Positions 358 to 9,995 of a stretch of 18,320 nt of DNA are shown one piece after another. The DNA lies in the IMG/VR virus record IMGVR_UViG_2728369556_000002; one strand, written 5' to 3'. Both the position numbers and the translations under genes were made by a program. The notes under the pieces were generated by a model. That model made no database searches and was not told the origin of the DNA. It worked only from the letters and a program-made list of their open reading frames with translations. Position 1 is the stretch's first letter. Each line of letters opens with the position of its first letter. This stretch comes from a virus (taxonomy: Duplodnaviria > Heunggongvirae > Uroviricota > Caudoviricetes).

Positions 358-713
358 CAGTGAGTGACCTCTTCAAAGGTACAGTTAAAATCGGTATACA
401 TGGCATTATCCGAAATGCTCCACTCCCTGCAGACAACCCGGACAGTCCTGTTGTGTTTTGGCGGACGCCACAAAAAAGCACGAATCCCGGCATGACGGGA
501 TAAAAAACTGTCCAGCGCGGCACGGGAATATTCATCTGTGACACGAAATACCGGTTTAAACGTTTTCAGATCCGCATTCAGACCACCAGCCCGTCGCTGT
601 TCATATCCGTCACCAAACTTTACCGTAATAACTGATGGCTTTCGTGTCGTCTCCATCCCCTCACGGGGGATCCAGTTAAAAACTTCAGGCTCAGGCACTG
701 TACAATCCTCCAT
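357..713 (-). CDS. M: minor tail protein M
   Basis: ORF track 357..743. The FGDGY...FLW motif region resembles lambda gpM. Start is more likely the ATG at 713 or the GTG at 698 (GGAGG 8 nt upstream) than 743, because the tape measure gene ends at 691. Confidence 0.8.
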   Translation of the reverse strand: MEDCTVPEPEVFNWIPREGMETTRKPSVITVKFGDGYEQRRAGGLNADLKTFKPVFRVTDEYSRAALDSFLSRHAGIRAFLWRPPKHNRTVRVVCREWSISDNAMYTDFNCTFEEVTH

Positions 714-3700
714 CCCGACGCGATGACTGCATAATTGACACAACCCTGCTGTCGATCAGATCCACCAGTCCCCTGGCTGAGCGCGCATCTATCTCGCCAT
801 TGCTCCCTTGATTCTGAATGCTGATGTGATACACGGGAGAATAAACAAATCCACCGCCACCATTCACATCTCCAATGGCCCTGACCCCAAGAGAGCCGTC
901 CGCTGCCCGTGTCAGTGGCATGATTGCTTCAGGCCCGGCCTCGCCCATCAACCCGGCCCCCTTCGCAAAAGCAAAATACGTCGGTGTATCCACAATAGTG
1001 TTACTGTAAGCACTCAGATTTGCCGATGTGTAAACACCACCTTTTGCGTTTGCCACTGCCCCCGAAATCCATCCGCCGACCGTACCAAGCCACCCTCCGG
1101 CACCGGAGAGTGATTTCAGTCCGTTAACAATGGCTGCATTCATCAGAATTTTTGAAACTTCCCGGAGAACTGAACTCCCCCAGTTCCTCCAGTCCACAAC
1201 ATTTCCGGCCAGTGCATCGGAAATATTTGATACCAGCCCGTCCATAGTGGAAACGACAGCATCTGCCGCCTGCGAAGCATAATCGGTGGCACTGTCTGCC
1301 CAGTTGGTCAGCCCCTCCTGGAGTCCTGCATTCCAGTTATTACGTAAAGCATCGGCCTTTGCATAATAATCCTGCTGATCGCTGAGACGCTCTTCCAGAT
1401 ATTTTTTATTCAGTTCTTTCTCCTGTTTCCACAGGGCTTCTTCAATTTCTCCGGCCTGATACTGTCTCAGCAGCTCGTTATTTTTCTGCTCAAACTCATG
1501 CCGGATACTCCACATTTCCTGGAGTCGTTCACGCATCCGTGAGCCTTCACCATATCCCAGTAACTGCGCGTCGTTAGACGCCCGGGTACTGGCATTACTG
1601 TCCGCCAGGCTGCTTTCATACGCAGCAAGCTGCTCACGAATCTTTTTCTGGTCGATGAGTGCTGCATTCTGCAAAAGCGTTTTTTTCTGCGCTTCTGACA
1701 GGGTTGATAATTCGCCCTGACTGACCTGATATTTCATCTTAGCCAGTTCAGTATTCTGCCCTGCCAGTGCTATCTGTTCTTTTTGCTGTTTAATCAGCCG
1801 TTTATAAATATCTTCTGTTTTTTCCGCTTCGGTCTTTTTATGCGCTTTGGGTTTATTTGCCTGGTTATTTCGCCAGGCATCCAGTGAGTTATTGATATAA
1901 TTCTGTCTGGCTGTCTGATACGCCTCTCCCACAAAGCCAAGATCATCCGCAGCATAGCCCAGTCGAGCACGCTCACGCGCTTCCCCCTTAAGGCGGGACA
2001 GAGCCAGTTCGCGCTTGCTGTTATTCAGTGCGGTCTGCTGTTTATCATCCAGGGTTGCCTGTGGTAGCCGTAACGGTACATTCACCAACCCCTGTCGCTG
2101 CTGAAGTAATTCATTACCAAGCCCAAGAAGGCGATTAAACTCGGTATGCTGCCCATTCATGATCAACAGGGACTGATACGCTTTGTTTTGTTCCGCCGCC
2201 TGTTGACGGATCAACGCAACCCGCCGCTCCTCCAGCCCGGCAAGCACATCCTGAATGGATTGCGCTTTGCCCTGCATTTGTGTGAGACGGGACTGTTCAA
2301 CTGCCAGTTGATTTGTTGCTTCTGCAAGCCCTTCTGTGACTGTTTTTACCGACGTCATGTGGTTAATCATAAAACCGTTATCGGTTGTCCAGCCCGGGTT
2401 TGCCAGCACATACTGATAGCCAGCAATTTTTTCCTGTAAGGATTTAATCTTACTTTTCTGCTCGTCAATTAACCTGTTTTGCTCATCAAGTGCCTGCCGC
2501 GTCTTTTCCTCATTATCTGACGCTTCAGGAAGCGACATTGCCGACGTTTTCTGGCGAATTTCGTCGATTGTTGCGGCATACTGGCGTGCAGATTCTCTGG
2601 CCTGCTCCTGATTCTGATACATCGTGTACCAGGCCGTCGCCCCCAGCATGACGAGTCCCGGCACACCACCAACCAGCCCCAGCGCACCACTTAACAGACG
2701 ACTCCCCACTGACGTGACAGTATTCAGCGTTGTCTGCGCCGCTGTTCTGGCCGCAATATTACGGGTAAGTGACGCCTGAGCAGCTGTCAGCTTCGCTTCT
2801 GCTGCGGCCTGCCTTTCGGTACCGCGAGCAGCAACAACCGCCTGTTGCGCACGATAAACCGCCGCACGCGCTCTGGCGGTTGCTATCTGTGTCCCCCGAA
2901 GTTGCGCTTCAGCAAGAGCCACTTCGTTTCTGGCTGCAGTAATTAATCCGGCAGTTGCAGATCCAGCAGACGACGCCATATTGCCAAAATATCGGGCTAC
3001 CCCGACGGCAACCAGTGCGCCAGCTGCAGCAGCCACGGTATCAATATTGTCTGCAACACCATTCAGCACACCGGAGAGTGTCTTTGTCACTCCGCTTGCC
3101 TCGTTCGCACCACCAACCCAGGCCATAAAGGCGTTTTCAACTTTGGTTGCAGAGGATGAAACAGTATCAGGCATTGCTGCATATTCATCACGCAACGCCC
3201 CAAGCTGACTAATCAGTGCAGGAACAACCTTATCGGCGGTCAGTTTTCCGTTATCCGCCATGGCCTTCAGATCCTTACGGGCAACCCCCATTCCCGCAGC
3301 CAGCGCACGAATAACACGATCGCCGTTCTCATTCACCGAGTTAAACTCTTCACCGCGCAGCACTCCCTGCGCCAGTGCCTGACTGAACTGCATGATCACC
3401 GAACTGGCTTCTGCTGTACTGGCACCGGATAATTTCAGGCCCGTGGAGATCGCCTCGGTGACTTTCAGTACCTCCTCAGAACTGTAACCATACTCCCGCA
3501 TGGAAGCTGCAGAACGGGCAAAAAGGCTGGCGTTATCAGAAAACGCCGTCCCCGTTCTCTGGCTGATCGCCATTAATTCACGCTGTGATGCCTGAAAATC
3601 ATCACTGGACTGTGAGGCCTGCTTCAGACGGGCATTTACTGAATTCCACTCATCGGCGAGAGAAATAAGATGACCGGTAGCAAAAGCCCCGGCAAATGCC

Positions 3701-3924
3701 CCCGCCATATTCAGTGCCGAAGATTTAGCTGTATTTATCTGATCCGTCACTTCTGCCAGTGCACGCCGCATTTCACGGGAGGCAGCAGCAGACTGTTGGC
3801 CTCCGTTCTGCATGGTGCGGTAGTAATCCTGCCCCATACGCGAAGCCCGGGAGATCTCTGACTGGAATGACCGGGAGTTTGCCGAGATTTTAATAATCAG
3901 TTCACGTAATGTCGCCACACTCAT
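691..3924 (-). CDS. H: tail tape measure protein (gpH-like)
   Basis: 1077-aa ORF with Ala/Gln-rich coiled-coil composition, located directly after the G/T chaperone pair and before M and L. Confidence 0.93.
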   Translation of the reverse strand: MSVATLRELIIKISANSRSFQSEISRASRMGQDYYRTMQNGGQQSAAASREMRRALAEVTDQINTAKSSALNMAGAFAGAFATGHLISLADEWNSVNARLKQASQSSDDFQASQRELMAISQRTGTAFSDNASLFARSAASMREYGYSSEEVLKVTEAISTGLKLSGASTAEASSVIMQFSQALAQGVLRGEEFNSVNENGDRVIRALAAGMGVARKDLKAMADNGKLTADKVVPALISQLGALRDEYAAMPDTVSSSATKVENAFMAWVGGANEASGVTKTLSGVLNGVADNIDTVAAAAGALVAVGVARYFGNMASSAGSATAGLITAARNEVALAEAQLRGTQIATARARAAVYRAQQAVVAARGTERQAAAEAKLTAAQASLTRNIAARTAAQTTLNTVTSVGSRLLSGALGLVGGVPGLVMLGATAWYTMYQNQEQARESARQYAATIDEIRQKTSAMSLPEASDNEEKTRQALDEQNRLIDEQKSKIKSLQEKIAGYQYVLANPGWTTDNGFMINHMTSVKTVTEGLAEATNQLAVEQSRLTQMQGKAQSIQDVLAGLEERRVALIRQQAAEQNKAYQSLLIMNGQHTEFNRLLGLGNELLQQRQGLVNVPLRLPQATLDDKQQTALNNSKRELALSRLKGEARERARLGYAADDLGFVGEAYQTARQNYINNSLDAWRNNQANKPKAHKKTEAEKTEDIYKRLIKQQKEQIALAGQNTELAKMKYQVSQGELSTLSEAQKKTLLQNAALIDQKKIREQLAAYESSLADSNASTRASNDAQLLGYGEGSRMRERLQEMWSIRHEFEQKNNELLRQYQAGEIEEALWKQEKELNKKYLEERLSDQQDYYAKADALRNNWNAGLQEGLTNWADSATDYASQAADAVVSTMDGLVSNISDALAGNVVDWRNWGSSVLREVSKILMNAAIVNGLKSLSGAGGWLGTVGGWISGAVANAKGGVYTSANLSAYSNTIVDTPTYFAFAKGAGLMGEAGPEAIMPLTRAADGSLGVRAIGDVNGGGGFVYSPVYHISIQNQGSNGEIDARSARGLVDLIDSRVVSIMQSSRRDGGLYSA

Positions 3925-3932
3925 TCTCCGGA

Positions 3933-3955
3933 CGAAAAAAAACCGCCGAAGCGGT
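3933..3955 (-). terminator. intrinsic terminator-like hairpin between the GT and tape measure genes
   Basis: Minus strand reads AACCGCTTCGGCGGTT followed by TTTTTTTT (plus 3933-3955), immediately upstream of the H ribosome-binding site. Confidence 0.4.
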
Positions 3956-3964
3956 TATGTTGAC

Positions 3965-4255
3965 TCACTGAGACACTATTAAAAGCGCGTTTTCCAGTCC
4001 GGCAAATGGATCTGAAGCGCCTTCTGTCTGCTCCTTCTCCCACTGAAGAAGCGCATCATTCAGTGACACTTTGACCCCCTGCGCACCGTAAATAGCTGAA
4101 ACAATCTGGGCAGCCCGGAAATCAGCCCGTTCGTCCCCCAGCGGGCTGAACCTGTCAAATTCTGCCCACATCATGATTTCTGATGCGGACATTTCCCGGC
4201 GTAACTCTGACAATGTGCGCCCCATCCTGAGCGCCAGCATCATCAGAAAACGCAT
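3965..4255 (-). CDS. T: tail assembly chaperone T segment, probably made only as a G-T fusion by -1 frameshift
   Basis: The 96-aa ORF lies in the -1 frame relative to G. The -1 frame is open from the A8 slippery run at the end of G (4271-4278) into this ORF. Confidence 0.7.
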   Translation of the reverse strand: MRFLMMLALRMGRTLSELRREMSASEIMMWAEFDRFSPLGDERADFRAAQIVSAIYGAQGVKVSLNDALLQWEKEQTEGASDPFAGLENALLIVSQ

Positions 4256-4266
4256 CCCCGGAAGCG

Positions 4267-4638
4267 CTACTTTTTTTTAACCTCGCCGGCATCACTGATC
4301 AGTTCCAGAGACTGCCGAAGAAGCCGCGCATGCACCGGGCCATACACGGCAATCACCTGTTCACGATCATCCTCTGAAAATACGGGTTGCAGTCCGGTAT
4401 CACACAGAACATCAATGAACAGTTCAACATCTGCCTCCAGATTTCGGCGGGCGCGCTCCGCAACGGATAACGGTGTCTCATCATCTTTTGCTTTAACGAT
4501 CTCCTGCCAGCGCAACCAGGCTTCTGCAGAAGGTTCCCGTAACACAACCGTTGCTCCCTCCCATTCAGGCACATCAACGGTTTTATGGCGAAACCCCGAC
4601 ATCGTTGCCAGTGCCAGATTACGGATATTTTTAGTCAT
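4267..4638 (-). CDS. G: tail assembly chaperone G
   Basis: ORF track 4267..4653. Preferred start is the ATG at 4638 (MTKNIRNL...) with GAGGA 8 nt upstream. The gene ends ...GEVKKK-stop inside an AAAAAAAAG slippery run. Position between V and H. Confidence 0.7.
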   Translation of the reverse strand: MTKNIRNLALATMSGFRHKTVDVPEWEGATVVLREPSAEAWLRWQEIVKAKDDETPLSVAERARRNLEADVELFIDVLCDTGLQPVFSEDDREQVIAVYGPVHARLLRQSLELISDAGEVKKK

Positions 4639-4652
4639 CACATCCATCCTCA

Positions 4653-5357
4653 TTAACTGACGGTTACAGTGCAGGAAGTGGAGGTCACTTTGTTAACCGG
4701 GCTCGCTGAATCAGAAATCTCGCAGGTATACGCACCGGCATCACCGGATGCTGCTGATGCCTTACTGAACGTTGCCGCCGTCTGTCCGGAAACAGGAGAA
4801 CCACCTTTTTTCCAGGCATAAGAATAAGGCGGCACACCACCCACAGCCTCAACCGCCATTTCAAGTTTCGCTCCGGAAGCAACCCGCAGCGTGCTTTTTA
4901 AATCGACCTTCACTTTCAGCTGCTCTGTCGTCAGCACAGGCTTACCTTTCAGGCGCAGAGAAAACGTTGCAGCCACAACACCATTGGTTCCTGCAGACCA
5001 GGTATGCTGACGCACCTCTGCCATAAAGGTAAATCCGTTGCCTGACGGAAAAATAACTTTAAAGCCATACGTGGTGTCATTGTCATAGGCACTGCGCAAC
5101 GCGTTCTGGGCAGCATTCAGATAAAAGTTGCCTGACATGGAAATCTCTGAAGCAGCCCCAAGACCGTTAATATTTTCCTGCTCAACAGAATACAGCGTGG
5201 TGACATCAATATCCTGCTTTTGTCCTGCGGTAAACTGCACCTCTTTGATTGTACAGCTCAGGCCAAGATAGCTGGCAGAATCCAGGGTTTCTGCTGTTAC
5301 CGGTGCAGACGAAATCATAATTTTCGTCAGTTGCGAACGCTCAAAATTAGAGGACAT
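4653..5357 (-). CDS. V: major tail protein (gpV-like) with C-terminal Ig-like domain
   Basis: 234-aa ORF with AGGAGA ribosome-binding site. The C-terminal ~90 aa (VPPYSYAWKKGG...AYTCEISD...) look like a Big_2-type Ig fold, as in lambda gpV. Confidence 0.88.
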   Translation of the reverse strand: MSSNFERSQLTKIMISSAPVTAETLDSASYLGLSCTIKEVQFTAGQKQDIDVTTLYSVEQENINGLGAASEISMSGNFYLNAAQNALRSAYDNDTTYGFKVIFPSGNGFTFMAEVRQHTWSAGTNGVVAATFSLRLKGKPVLTTEQLKVKVDLKSTLRVASGAKLEMAVEAVGGVPPYSYAWKKGGSPVSGQTAATFSKASAASGDAGAYTCEISDSASPVNKVTSTSCTVTVS

Positions 5358-5363
5358 ACTCGT

Positions 5364-5385
5364 CTCCTGAAAATAAAAAAACCCG
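5364..5385 (-). terminator. intrinsic terminator-like hairpin upstream of the major tail gene
   Basis: Minus strand reads CCCGCCGCTGGCGGG followed by TTTTTTT, then the V ribosome-binding site. Confidence 0.4.
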
Positions 5386-5417
5386 CCAGCGGCGGGTGGG
5401 TAAAATCATTAATGACC

Positions 5418-8177: not shown

Positions 8178-8724
8178 TTATGCATTAAGAAGGGTCAAAA
8201 GGCGCTCACGCGCCATTCGTTCATTAACAGCTTTCTTCAGCGCACCACTCGCCCGCGCTTCCTGCCAGGCTTTCATTGAGCGGACACCGGAGTCTGCGTC
8301 CTGATAGGCCGGATATGTCACCGGGCTGACGTCATACAGACGAGAAATGCGCGTGATTTCCCGGATAACAATCCCCTCGTCGTCTTCATACCAGCTCTCT
8401 CCGTCACGGGCGACACGAAACGCGAACGAGGACTGGTTAATGTCACCACGCAACATTGGAGACAGCACCAGGTCACAAATAGTCGGAGTATCCGGTGCAA
8501 CAATGTCATAACGTAAACCGCGTTCATCCACCGACAATGACAATGTGCCGGCAGAACTTCGTCCGAGAATGAAATTAGGATCATGATTAAACAAGCCACG
8601 TACATCATCATTCAGTACATCATCAAAAGCCCCCGGCTTGATGATTTCACGAAATCCCCACAGAGGTTCTGAACGACTGTTAAATACCGAGCCATACCCC
8701 AGAATGTGGGTCGGGCATTATCAT
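8178..8724 (-). CDS. prohead protease (HK97 / S78 family) with an apparent frame break at the 5' end
   Basis: The protease frame is open from 8717 to 8178 (...ILGYGSVFNSRSEPLWGFREIIKPGAFDD...NHD...) but has no ATG, GTG or TTG before the TTG at 8594. The only ATGs with a ribosome-binding site (8724 and 8718) are in the +1 frame and stop after 14 codons. Confidence 0.75.
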
Positions 8725-8768
8725 ATTGTTCCGCCCGCACCTCCCCGCTGTAACAGCGCGTTTCACGG

Positions 8769-9995
8769 TCATTCATCGTTCTTTTCCTCTTTGCCTTTCG
8801 TATCTTTAAAGTTATTCAACGGATTTGCTGCATTTACGCTGACCAGCATTTCATCCAGACCGTCAACCGGGTTCATATCCTCAAATGCCCTGGCTTCATT
8901 CCGACTCATCCAGCCATCTGTAATGGCAAAGTGATAGAACTGCGCACGCTCCTGTGGGGTCCCACGGAGCAACCCCGTGAGGTTAAAACGAACGTAATAC
9001 CCGGCAGCCCGTTCTGTACGGGTAAACAGGCGACGGTTAAGCTCCTGCTCCCAGTTCGCAACCCAGGGCATCATCGTGTAGCGAACAAACTGAATCGCCT
9101 GCTGCGTAATATTCGAAAATGTGGCTTTTTCCAGGTCATTAATCATGTGCGCCGGGACATTAAAAATCCCTGCAATCATCGACCTGTTCAGCTTGGTCAT
9201 ATCAATGATCTGAGCATCCACCGGAGAAACTGTCAGAGCGCGGTAATCCAGTTGCGCAGGCAACAGCATGGTTTTATTTTCCTGGCTGCGAAGCGCTGTC
9301 ACCGCCCGCTGCCACATATTTTTAAGCCTGCCCCAGCTCTGTTCGTTCAGTTCATTTTTCACAGAAATAATACCGGCAGGACGGGCATTACCGTTAAAAA
9401 AGGCGCTGGTATACTGCTGGCCACTCATTCCCATACCAATGGTTTCAGCATGCTGCATGATCGGGCTCAGTCCCATTTTCTGATTGTTTCCCAGCGCCCT
9501 GATATGGATCATGTCGTCCGGACTTACCGCAAATGCACCCTCTTCGTTATACACCCCGTAAGTATGACGCCCACCGGTGTTAAGTAACGTGGTTTCCCAT
9601 GGCATACAGCATTCAAGGCTGGTAACCTCTCCACGACGATTACGTTTTACCCACGTATAACCATTGCCCCACCCCAGCACATGACGCTGCTTCAGTTCCC
9701 GCCACTTATAGCTGGTCTGCCAGGCATTAGGTTCATCATGAACGAGCCAGAACAACGGATGATCGCGTGCAGGCTGAACATGCTCATTCGTTTTTCGCAT
9801 CACATGCAGGGGCATCTGAGCCACACTGGATGAAATAACATAAATACAGGCATAGACAGCAGCCAGCTTCATGGATGTTTCCGGACTGACATACACATCC
9901 CGGGCAAAAATATTATCCGTCTCAGCGGCCTCTCCGGTTACCGGAACCGAGGGATTTTCCAGAGACTCACTGCGAAACAGAGCATCAAGAAGCAT
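8769..9995 (-). CDS. portal protein, HK97 family
   Basis: 408-aa ORF with AGGAGA ribosome-binding site, directly downstream of large terminase. Confidence 0.92.
   Translation of the reverse strand: MLLDALFRSESLENPSVPVTGEAAETDNIFARDVYVSPETSMKLAAVYACIYVISSSVAQMPLHVMRKTNEHVQPARDHPLFWLVHDEPNAWQTSYKWRELKQRHVLGWGNGYTWVKRNRRGEVTSLECCMPWETTLLNTGGRHTYGVYNEEGAFAVSPDDMIHIRALGNNQKMGLSPIMQHAETIGMGMSGQQYTSAFFNGNARPAGIISVKNELNEQSWGRLKNMWQRAVTALRSQENKTMLLPAQLDYRALTVSPVDAQIIDMTKLNRSMIAGIFNVPAHMINDLEKATFSNITQQAIQFVRYTMMPWVANWEQELNRRLFTRTERAAGYYVRFNLTGLLRGTPQERAQFYHFAITDGWMSRNEARAFEDMNPVDGLDEMLVSVNAANPLNNFKDTKGKEEKNDE

Follow-up and report, generated by a model that had tools for sequence, protein, structure and literature searches.

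A probable programmed -1 ribosomal frameshift site at the junction of tail chaperone genes G and T in an HK97/lambda-like Escherichia coli prophage

The junction of genes G and T in the window, by which we mean the whole stretch of 18,320 nucleotides analysed here (IMG/VR virus record IMGVR_UViG_2728369556_000002), is very likely a programmed -1 ribosomal frameshift site that yields the G/GT pair of tail assembly chaperones in an HK97/lambda-like E. coli prophage. Its assignment to the G/GT class rests on gene position, a -1 overlap, an in-phase slippery sequence, homology, conservation and a T segment without a start of its own. The G/GT chaperone model had been put forward in the initial annotation, and it is borne out by matches to Pfam, PHROG and PDB entries, by the position of the genes, by the -1 arrangement in most of the related loci and by the annotated homologue in phage HK97.

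The G/T junction and its gene context

Read on the minus strand, the junction runs ...GAT GCC GGC GAG GTT AAA AAA AAG TAG CGC TTC CGG GGA TGC..., and the translation of G (4267..4653, minus strand) terminates in ...SDAGEVKKK* (asterisks denote stops). This reading and the translation confirm the earlier statement that G ends in GTT AAA AAA AAG TAG. The heptamer A_AAA_AAG (Table 1), which had been proposed as a -1 slippery sequence, consists of the final two sense codons of G and the A before them. It lies in the canonical phase of the G frame; in E. coli it is among the most shift-prone and efficient heptamers and occurs in phase less often than expected (z=-10.1). On the descending strand, the positions of codon starts leave a remainder of 0 for G and of 1 for T when divided by 3. 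The T ORF 3965..4255 had likewise been placed in the -1 frame, open from the A-run on, and the translation of that frame (...G*KKVALPGMRFLMMLALRMG...IVSQ*) agrees, with the frame opening at 4276. Because a TAA of the -1 frame closes T upstream, the overlap between G and T is just 10 nt, comprising the heptamer and the G stop, and the change of frame must occur inside the A-run. The predicted GT junction reads ...GEVKKK-VALPGMRF..., with the junction peptide ...EVKKKVALPGMR.

Table 1. Features at and around the G/T junction of the window
Feature	Position	Strand	Basis
Major tail protein with C-terminal Ig-like domain, upstream neighbour	4653..5357	-	phrog_158, E=1e-106
Gene G, tail assembly chaperone	4267..4638	-	123 aa from ATG 4638; PF06222 Phage_TAC_1, E=2.7e-58
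TAA of the -1 (T) frame, closing T upstream	4279..4277	-	translation ...CRRG*KKVALPG...
A8 homopolymer run, containing the heptamer	4278..4271	-	direct reading; G follows at 4270
Slippery heptamer A_AAA_AAG	4276..4270	-	direct reading; X_XXY_YYZ phase of the G frame
Zero-frame stop TAG of G, directly 3′ of the heptamer	4269..4267	-	sequence and translation
T segment, predicted to be read only after a -1 shift	3965..4270	-	PF06223 Phage_tail_T, E=2.3e-19
Terminator-like hairpin AACCGCTTCGGCGGTT followed by T8	3933..3956	-	after the T stop, ahead of the start of the tape-measure gene
Tape measure protein, downstream neighbour	691..3918	-	Pfam Phage_HK97_TLTM (E=4.8e-93), TMP_3, Tape_meas_lam_C

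The motif by itself is not rare, since AAAAAAG occurs 10 times in the window against 4.1 expected copies. What speaks against chance is its exact in-phase placement within the 10-nt overlap, combined with an in-phase A_AAG in all 57 loci compared below while the flanking codons vary. The major tail gene contains another AAAAAAG copy, at 4805..4811, which coordinate arithmetic puts in the AAA_AAA_G phase and not in the slip phase.

The G and T frames were as read in the initial annotation, which had given a span of 3965-4653, but its upper boundary probably needs to be moved, as the most likely start of G is ATG 4638 and not 4653. The longest G ORF does start at 4653 and would encode 128 aa; however, ATG 4638 is preceded by the Shine-Dalgarno (SD) sequence GAGGA (-8.5 kcal/mol, versus +0.9 for start 4653), and both GenBank and PGAP give G a length of 372 nt. 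G also matches phrog_344 (tail assembly chaperone) and PDB entry 2OB9, 'Tail assembly chaperone' (E=3.4e-49). The T segment comprises 101 codons, from GTA 4270..4268 to the stop TGA 3967..3965, and the predicted GT fusion has 224 aa (229 aa when counted from 4653). In the phrog_14766 profile, which has 224 positions, G matches positions 1-121 and T positions 123-220, and this profile is consistent with fused GT proteins of the G/T family being present in phage databases.

On the minus strand, the gene order is major tail protein, G, T and tape measure. The upstream gene additionally has a Pfam Ig_2 match and weak tail-tube matches, while GTG 3918, which is preceded by the SD sequence GGAGA, is the likely start of the tape-measure gene, annotated with 3228 nt. 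HK97 has putative terminators annotated at positions equivalent to that of the terminator-like hairpin. The prohead protease of the window's prophage copy is frameshifted, and this copy may no longer produce virions.

Conservation of the shift site and competing explanations

Relatives were found by scanning genome contigs with an alignment of 17 homologues, a single G protein query having given nothing usable. In 53 of 56 diverse Enterobacterales genome loci, from many genera, T lies in the -1 frame relative to G; these 53 loci, the window and three phage loci make up the set of 57 loci. An in-phase A_AAG was present in every one of them, and the Lys of the shift codon does not vary in the G alignment. 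The P site, by contrast, varies: A_AAA_AAG was found in 34 loci, x_GCA_AAG in nine, G_GAA_AAG in seven (including HK97), G_GGA_AAG in five and other variants in two. A stop follows straight after AAG in 37 of the 57 loci. The length of the A-run ranges from three to eight, with A8 in eight loci, A7 in 24 and A3 or A4 in 23. The last group carries GAA AAG of the HK97 type, GCA AAG or GGA AAG, and T is still in the -1 frame. A scan of viral contigs gave near-identical copies only, and it served to assess run-length polymorphism, not conservation; among these 80 contigs, the run was A8 in 78 and A7 in two. Among 5,426 complete genomes of E. coli, the region was matched in 902, and it carries the two-gene annotation in hundreds of complete E. 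coli genomes.

These data bear directly on the actor that changes the frame. If RNA polymerase added one A to the A8 run, the resulting A9 mRNA would place G and T in a single frame, and since the inserted A gives GTT AAA AAA AAA GTA GCG..., the protein would be identical to the one expected from ribosomal slippage. We nevertheless regard it as unlikely that GT arises mainly in this manner. Slippage of bacterial RNA polymerase is efficient in vivo on nine A or T residues (PMC5009743), and the A8 run of the window falls one base short of the length for which efficient slippage has been documented in E. coli, although some insertion sequence (IS) elements appear to use eight A residues and in human apoB an A8 run yields about 10% corrected product (PMC1088944). 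Runs of A8 and A7 do occur in the family, and an A9 run in a Symbiopectobacterium genome (L129) creates a natural in-frame fusion. Yet the family-wide constant is the in-phase A_AAG and not the run. That relatives with only A3 or A4 retain the arrangement fits a ribosomal slip on A_AAG and not slippage by the polymerase, which, moreover, needs no codon phase for its run, whereas the phase is fixed in all loci. Recognized sites of transcriptional slippage, such as those of T. thermophilus dnaX, IS elements and mxiE, have runs of about nine or more A or T residues that are conserved among homologues; the run in the window has eight, and its length differs among homologues. The A8 run is a possible secondary site of RNA polymerase slippage and of indel mutation. 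It is a long shot that, in the A8 clade, the GT level is set jointly by polymerase slippage on A8 and by TAG-aided ribosomal slippage, with the run acting in addition as a mutational switch (A8 to A9 or A7). If such dual-level control were true, the GT:G ratio would be higher or differently regulated than in lambda or HK97, and a switch in the A-run would toggle between normal, always-fused and T-less states.

Two further explanations would do without any slippage, and both are much less probable. GenBank and PGAP list T as a separate coding sequence from 4255 or 4243, and T could accordingly be an independent protein made from an internal ATG (4255, or 4243/4240) with no fusion formed, which we consider very improbable. 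ATG 4255 has no SD sequence (-1.0 kcal/mol) and occurs in just 14 of 47 unique relatives, while ATG 4243/4240 is preceded, at 12-15 nt, by a weak SD-like GGGG(A) stretch (-5.7 kcal/mol), from which a trace of free T may be made. Codon 10 of the T frame is a conserved Met, but it is replaced by Leu in five of the 47 unique junctions. Upstream of any conserved ATG, codon 4 encodes Pro in 46 of the 47 junctions, with all four codons in use (CCG in 15, CCC in 15, CCT in 11 and CCA in five), and Phe8 is present in 46 as well, so that both residues are conserved despite synonymous codon variation. The T-frame peptide is therefore under amino-acid selection from the first post-slip codon, ahead of any conserved start, and in each locus of the -1 type no stop interrupts the T frame as far back as A_AAG. 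In lambda, GT alone has been described, and no free T product (PMC5009743). The remaining explanation, that G and T are normally a single ORF, split by a frameshift mutation or by an error in sequencing the homopolymer, has in our judgement the slimmest chance of all. Run length does vary, as seen in the two A7 contigs, in one locus with one A fewer (L108) and in the A9 locus; the protein collection contains a few G-T proteins encoded by a single ORF (P0001-P0003), and the protease of the same prophage is truly frameshifted. Against this stand the -1 position of T across many genera, the A8 run in nearly all close relatives and the widespread two-gene annotation, and the in-frame G-T proteins form clusters of one to six members as compared to hundreds for G alone. 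Programmed -1 ribosomal frameshifting remains our preferred reading.

Search for stimulatory elements and predicted course of the slip

Signals of the stimulated dnaX and IS3 types carry an SD-like element about 6-17 nt upstream and/or a hairpin or pseudoknot 5-9 nt downstream of the heptamer, and neither was found at the G/T site. Single-sequence folds of the downstream region were no better than those of shuffled sequences (z=-1.5 and -0.3), RNAalifold predicted 0 conserved pairs from 25 diverse junctions, and a search of Rfam at E<=1 gave no match. Upstream, no SD-like element was conserved, and pairing with the anti-SD was no stronger than in shuffles (family median -4.0 kcal/mol versus -5.2); the GAGG of the window lies, by direct count, just 4 nt from the heptamer and is not conserved. 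A locally conserved hairpin, GCGCUC...GGGCGC, about 35 nt downstream, was rejected as a stimulator because it is too distant, encodes the conserved peptide ALRxGR and is absent in Lys variants. With neither a conserved stimulator nor an Rfam match, low-level slipping as in lambda is to be expected, possibly aided by the adjacent stop. In a stimulator-free reporter, A_AAA_AAG gave just 0.29% frameshifting, and the slip rate at the G/T site may be low, or dependent on context such as the stop next to it.

In the mechanism that we infer, with the ribosome rather than RNA polymerase as the main actor, most ribosomes would read G through AAA AAG and stop at TAG, giving G, while a small fraction would step one base back on A_AAA_AAG. 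Both the P-site and the A-site tRNA-Lys would then re-pair, from AAA-AAG to AAA-AAA. Alternatively, the P-site tRNA-Lys alone might slip from AAG to AAA, with TAG, which is decoded slowly, waiting in the A site, and the stop adjoining the heptamer possibly permits such P-site slippage at a 'shifty stop'. In either case the ribosome would continue with GTA GCG CTT... and complete the GT fusion. On the lambda model, G and GT would both bind the tape measure protein through their G part, the T part would serve to recruit the major tail protein, and tail assembly would require a fixed, low ratio of GT to G.

Comparison with known systems and implications

The G/GT frameshift site is real but already known, as its combination of heptamer and stop has been published for ECs1801, whose G is 68% identical to that of the window. 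ECs1801 belongs, with ECs1802, to prophage Sp9 of E. coli O157:H7 Sakai; it is listed as a tail assembly chaperone in cluster A_AAA_AAG_25 of Sharma et al. 2014 (PMC4066793), where it is marked as true, with products of 124/226 aa versus 123/224 aa in the window. It, too, is flanked by the genes for the major tail protein and the tape measure, its end, AGA AAA AAG TAG, likewise places TAG directly after the heptamer, and no SD stimulator was reported for it (PMC4066793). The two sites differ in that the heptamer of ECs1801 follows AGA, giving an A6 run, whereas in the window GTT AAA gives A8, and in that the -1 frame is open for 25 nt in ECs1801 versus 10 nt in the window. The ECs1801-type arrangement is also found in phage BP-4795 and in many Stx phages.

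Homology extends to gp13 and gp14 of HK97 (NC_002167; structure of G in PDB 2OB9), which are 64% (G) and 62% (T) identical to the products of the window and are encoded in the same gene order; the gp13/gp14 pair is annotated as 'translated due to a -1 frameshift'. The shift codon AAG of HK97 falls in the same column of the G alignment as that of the window. However, its site, CGG GAA AAG TCT, has the form G_GAA_AAG with an A4 run, in contrast to A_AAA_AAG with A8, its G stop lies five codons further on, creating an overlap of 52 nt instead of 10 nt, and a moron that is absent in the window, gp15, sits between GT and H.

The lambda G/GT system was reportedly described by Levin, Hendrix and Casjens in 1993 and by Xu, Hendrix and Duda in 2004, 2013 and 2014. 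Its logic and gene order are those of the window, and its T domain also belongs to PF06223, Minor tail protein T; the sole Pfam match of the window's G is Phage_TAC_1. The low-level -1 slip of lambda onto an AAG Lys codon can be likened to the site in the window, which lacks a conserved stimulator. As the initial annotation had correctly pointed out, the heptamer of lambda, G_GGA_AAG, differs from that of the window, although five relatives in the window's own family do use it. The lambda G:GT ratio is 30:1 and is needed for tail assembly (PMC5009743).

With E. coli dnaX (gamma/tau), the window shares the identical heptamer A_AAA_AAG. The dnaX signal reaches about 50%, aided by an SD-like element upstream and a hairpin downstream. 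Neither of these is detectable or conserved at the site in the window, where, unlike in dnaX, the shifted product is the longer one. Both sites rely on the single tRNA-Lys of E. coli, which pairs weakly with AAG (PMC5009743).

Frameshifting of the G/GT kind is textbook knowledge for long-tailed phages, and the site has little value as a discovery. Its practical value lies in annotation: the records that we inspected, one for the phage in GenBank and one for E. coli in RefSeq, show G and T as separate genes and lack the predicted 224-aa GT protein. The family survey, which combines an invariant in-phase A_AAG with a variable P-site codon and, in roughly two thirds of the loci, with a stop that adjoins the site, is possibly a useful small data set for the evolution of frameshift sites.

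Anatomy of the G/T junction

All genes in the G/T part of the window are carried on the minus strand, on which the junction reads ...GAT GCC GGC GAG GTT AAA AAA AAG TAG CGC TTC CGG GGA TGC GTT.... This bore out the initial annotation, which had G ending in GAG GTT AAA AAA AAG TAG and the T ORF lying in the -1 frame, open from the A-run onward; its description of the site was right in every detail. The two frames overlap by 10 nt, comprising the heptamer plus the stop codon and nothing more, so that passage from G to T must go via the A-run.

Features of the G/T junction, in coordinates of the whole window
Feature	Coordinates	Strand	Remarks
Major tail protein gene, upstream neighbour of G	4653..5357	-	C-terminal Ig-like domain
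G, longest ORF	4267..4653	-	128 aa in translation; C-terminal end ...SDAGEVKKK (stop)
T-frame TAA	4279..4277	-	Read from sequence
A8 run	4278..4271	-	Next base G at 4270
Heptamer A_AAA_AAG	4276..4270	-	Phase X_XXY_YYZ
G stop TAG	4269..4267	-	Read from sequence
-1 frame (T)		-	Reads ...CRRG (stop) KKVALPGMRFLMMLALRMGRTLSEL...LLIVSQ (stop); TGA stop 3967..3965

G was assigned to Pfam Phage_TAC_1 (E=2.7e-58) and matched the solved structure 2OB9, 'Tail assembly chaperone' (E=3.4e-49), and the product of the -1 frame was assigned to Pfam Phage_tail_T ('Minor tail protein T'; E=2.3e-19). Positions 1-121 of the 224-position PHROG profile phrog_14766 match G and positions 123-220 match the T segment, which is consistent with phage databases already containing GT fusions from this family. 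Downstream of T follows a tape measure protein, in which HK97 and lambda domains were recognized. In the major tail protein, the Ig-like domain is in-frame at residues about 154-233 (Pfam Ig_2, Ig_3, I-set).

The longest-ORF start of G, ATG 4653, overlaps the stop of the major tail gene (TAATG) and has no Shine-Dalgarno sequence (anti-SD pairing +0.9 kcal/mol), whereas ATG 4638 is preceded by the Shine-Dalgarno sequence GAGGA (-8.5 kcal/mol). Since the latter is also favoured by the G length of 372 nt in both the GenBank and PGAP annotation and by the starts of homologues, which coincide with it in a protein alignment, translation most likely begins at ATG 4638, yielding a G of 123 aa and a GT of 224 aa.

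Conservation of the probable shift site among relatives

With the predicted GT fusion as tblastn query, homologues were found in 226 phage records. The matches came in two pieces in almost every listed phage record, a pattern consistent with G and T being encoded in different frames. In addition, an alignment built from 17 diverse G proteins served to fetch 56 loci from many Enterobacterales genera, including Enterobacter, Kosakonia, Serratia, Pectobacterium, Xenorhabdus, Morganella, Proteus, Providencia, Pantoea and Klebsiella. Of these 56 genome loci, 53 have T in the -1 frame, and these 53 were analysed together with three phage loci and the window (57 loci).

An in-phase A_AAG was present within the overlap at every one of the 57 loci, and the shift-codon Lys formed an invariant column in the alignment of the 17 G proteins. 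The heptamer was A_AAA_AAG at 34 loci, A/G_GCA_AAG at nine, G_GAA_AAG at seven, G_GGA_AAG at five, and A_GAA_AAG and G_GTA_AAG at one each; a stop codon directly followed AAG at 37 loci. The A-run was 3 nt long at 15 loci, 4 nt at 8, 6 nt at 2, 7 nt at 24 and 8 nt at 8. Among 80 near-identical viral contigs, 78 had A8 and two A7.

Three loci departed from the -1 arrangement. L129, from Candidatus Symbiopectobacterium endolongispinus, has a natural A9 (junction GCC AAA AAA AAA GTA) that makes G and T a single ORF, whereas the related S. purcellii copies have A8 and TAG. In L108, from Serratia sp. L9, the run is one A shorter than in its relatives (GAA AAA AGT), which places T in the +1 frame, and at the third, L099, G is truncated. 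The A-run is unstable, or error-prone in sequencing. Rare single-ORF G-T proteins (P0001-P0003) were also seen in a protein collection: P0001, from one Logan contig, has the junction ...GEVKK-VALPGM, corresponding to an A6 run, and in P0002 and P0003, both of the Stx-phage type, the fusion junctions are altered. These are probably assembly errors or mutations; conceivably, slipped transcripts lie behind them, since Logan includes RNA-seq runs. The string AAAAAAG occurs 10 times on both strands of the window against 4.1 expected; the copy inside the major tail gene (4805..4811, minus strand) is, by coordinate arithmetic, in AAA_AAA_G phase and not in -1 slip phase.

Possible routes to T and GT

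Codons that vary synonymously while the amino acid stays fixed mark a frame as translated. In the T frame, the peptides can be aligned from the first post-slip codon (V-x-x-P-x-x-x-F-L-M-x-L-A-L-R-x-G-R/K-T), with Pro at codon 4 and Phe at codon 8 each in 46 of 47 unique junctions; for Pro, all four CCN codons are used (15/15/11/5). These two codons precede the conserved Met at codon 10, itself replaced by Leu in 5 of the 47. Were T initiated at an ATG of its own, the candidates would be ATG 4243/4240, with a GGGG(A) SD-like stretch that is weak and badly spaced, and ATG 4255, the GenBank start, which lacks an SD (-1.0 kcal/mol) and is found in only 14 of 47 relatives. Given these weak or absent SDs and the selection on Pro4 and Phe8 upstream of the conserved Met, T is unlikely to arise mainly by independent initiation, though a trace may be made in this way.

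A slipping RNA polymerase that inserted one A into the A8 run of the transcript would lead to an identical protein; ribosome and polymerase are therefore indistinguishable from protein data alone. Efficient slippage of bacterial RNA polymerase has been described on 9 A or T (PMC5009743), and 8 A seems enough in some systems (PMC1088944). However, the conserved feature of the family is the codon-phased A_AAG and not the run: 23 of the 57 loci have only A3 or A4 with T still in the -1 frame, and the motif keeps the same phase at every locus. Polymerase slippage is therefore improbable as the main route to GT, though it may make a minor contribution in the A8 clade. Ribosomal slippage very probably produces GT, which supports the -1 frameshift reading of the initial annotation.

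The only recurrent context feature of the site is the stop codon directly after the heptamer. This stop could raise slipping: a ribosome pausing there would hold tRNA-Lys on AAG in its P site and slip more often. No stimulatory element was found: the downstream RNA folded no better than shuffled sequence over 96 nt and 54 nt 3' of the site (z=-1.5 and -0.3), RNAalifold predicted no conserved pair among 25 diverse junctions, and Rfam gave no family match at E<=1. Upstream SD-like pairing across the family was not above shuffled controls (median -4.0 vs -5.2 kcal/mol), and the GAGG of the window is, by direct coordinate count, only 4 nt from the heptamer. In agreement with this absence, Sharma et al. 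(PMC4066793) scored the homologous cluster without an SD. The element GCGCTCCGGATGGGGCGCAC (about 4215..4232, minus strand), which encodes ALRMGRT, is strongly conserved as DNA, also in relatives, and this probably reflects codon and peptide conservation. It can pair as a 6-bp hairpin about 35 nt 3' of the slip site and was rejected as a classical stimulator, being too distant and absent in Lys variants.

In the reporters of Sharma et al. (PMC4066793), A_AAA_AAG shifted at 0.29% without stimulators; the figure was 4.3% when the IS911 elements were present and 39% when the IS3 pseudoknot was. By analogy with lambda, a low rate would suit the biological need, because lambda tail assembly requires a G:GT ratio of about 30:1 (PMC5009743).

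Genomic setting and known systems

Several E. coli phage or prophage records, vB_EcoS-733R4 among them, match the region at 100% identity, and matches were found in 902 of 5,426 complete E. coli genomes, chromosomally in all. The prohead protease gene (HK97-family; 8178..8776, minus strand) is broken, its first 54 residues (8612..8776) being encoded in another frame than the remainder (to 8178), with the frame change near CGACCCACATTCTGGGG, at about 8700. In E. coli M217 this gene is 'frameshifted' in the PGAP annotation, whereas phages 99.6% identical (PhiR49_2, 813R8 and others) are one base longer in the match and have a single intact protease CDS. Head maturation is probably impaired in the prophage copy of the window.

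Two terminator-like hairpins with T-runs were seen, one in the gap from T to the tape measure gene (3933..3956, minus strand) and one shortly before the major tail gene (5371..5397, minus strand); putative terminators are annotated at the equivalent places in HK97. As the hairpins lie within a late operon, transcription presumably reads through them by antitermination. HK97 carries a moron (gp15) between GT and H, whereas the window has none there.

G and T of HK97 are 64% and 62% identical to those of the window, and the pair is annotated 'translated due to a -1 frameshift'; its site reads CGG GAA AAG TCT CAA CCC CCG GCG TAA. The mechanism class is that of the lambda G/GT frameshift (Levin et al. 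1993; Xu et al. 2004, as cited in PMC5009743). ECs_1801 of Sakai prophage Sp9, 68% identical to G, ends in AGA AAA AAG TAG, a site also present in BP-4795. Sharma et al. 2014 (PMC4066793; Tables S4 and S6) mark the ECs_1801 cluster, A_AAA_AAG_25, as a true case, in which the gene for a 124-aa tail assembly chaperone closes with A_AAA_AAG and the shifted product has 226 aa. Because this published case has the same arrangement, the finding is already known, in kind and in detail. Particular to the locus are only the longer A-run and the join missing from annotation: both inspected records, a GenBank phage entry and a RefSeq genome entry, list G and T as two separate genes. There is a slim chance that the A8 run provides dual-level recoding or a mutational switch.
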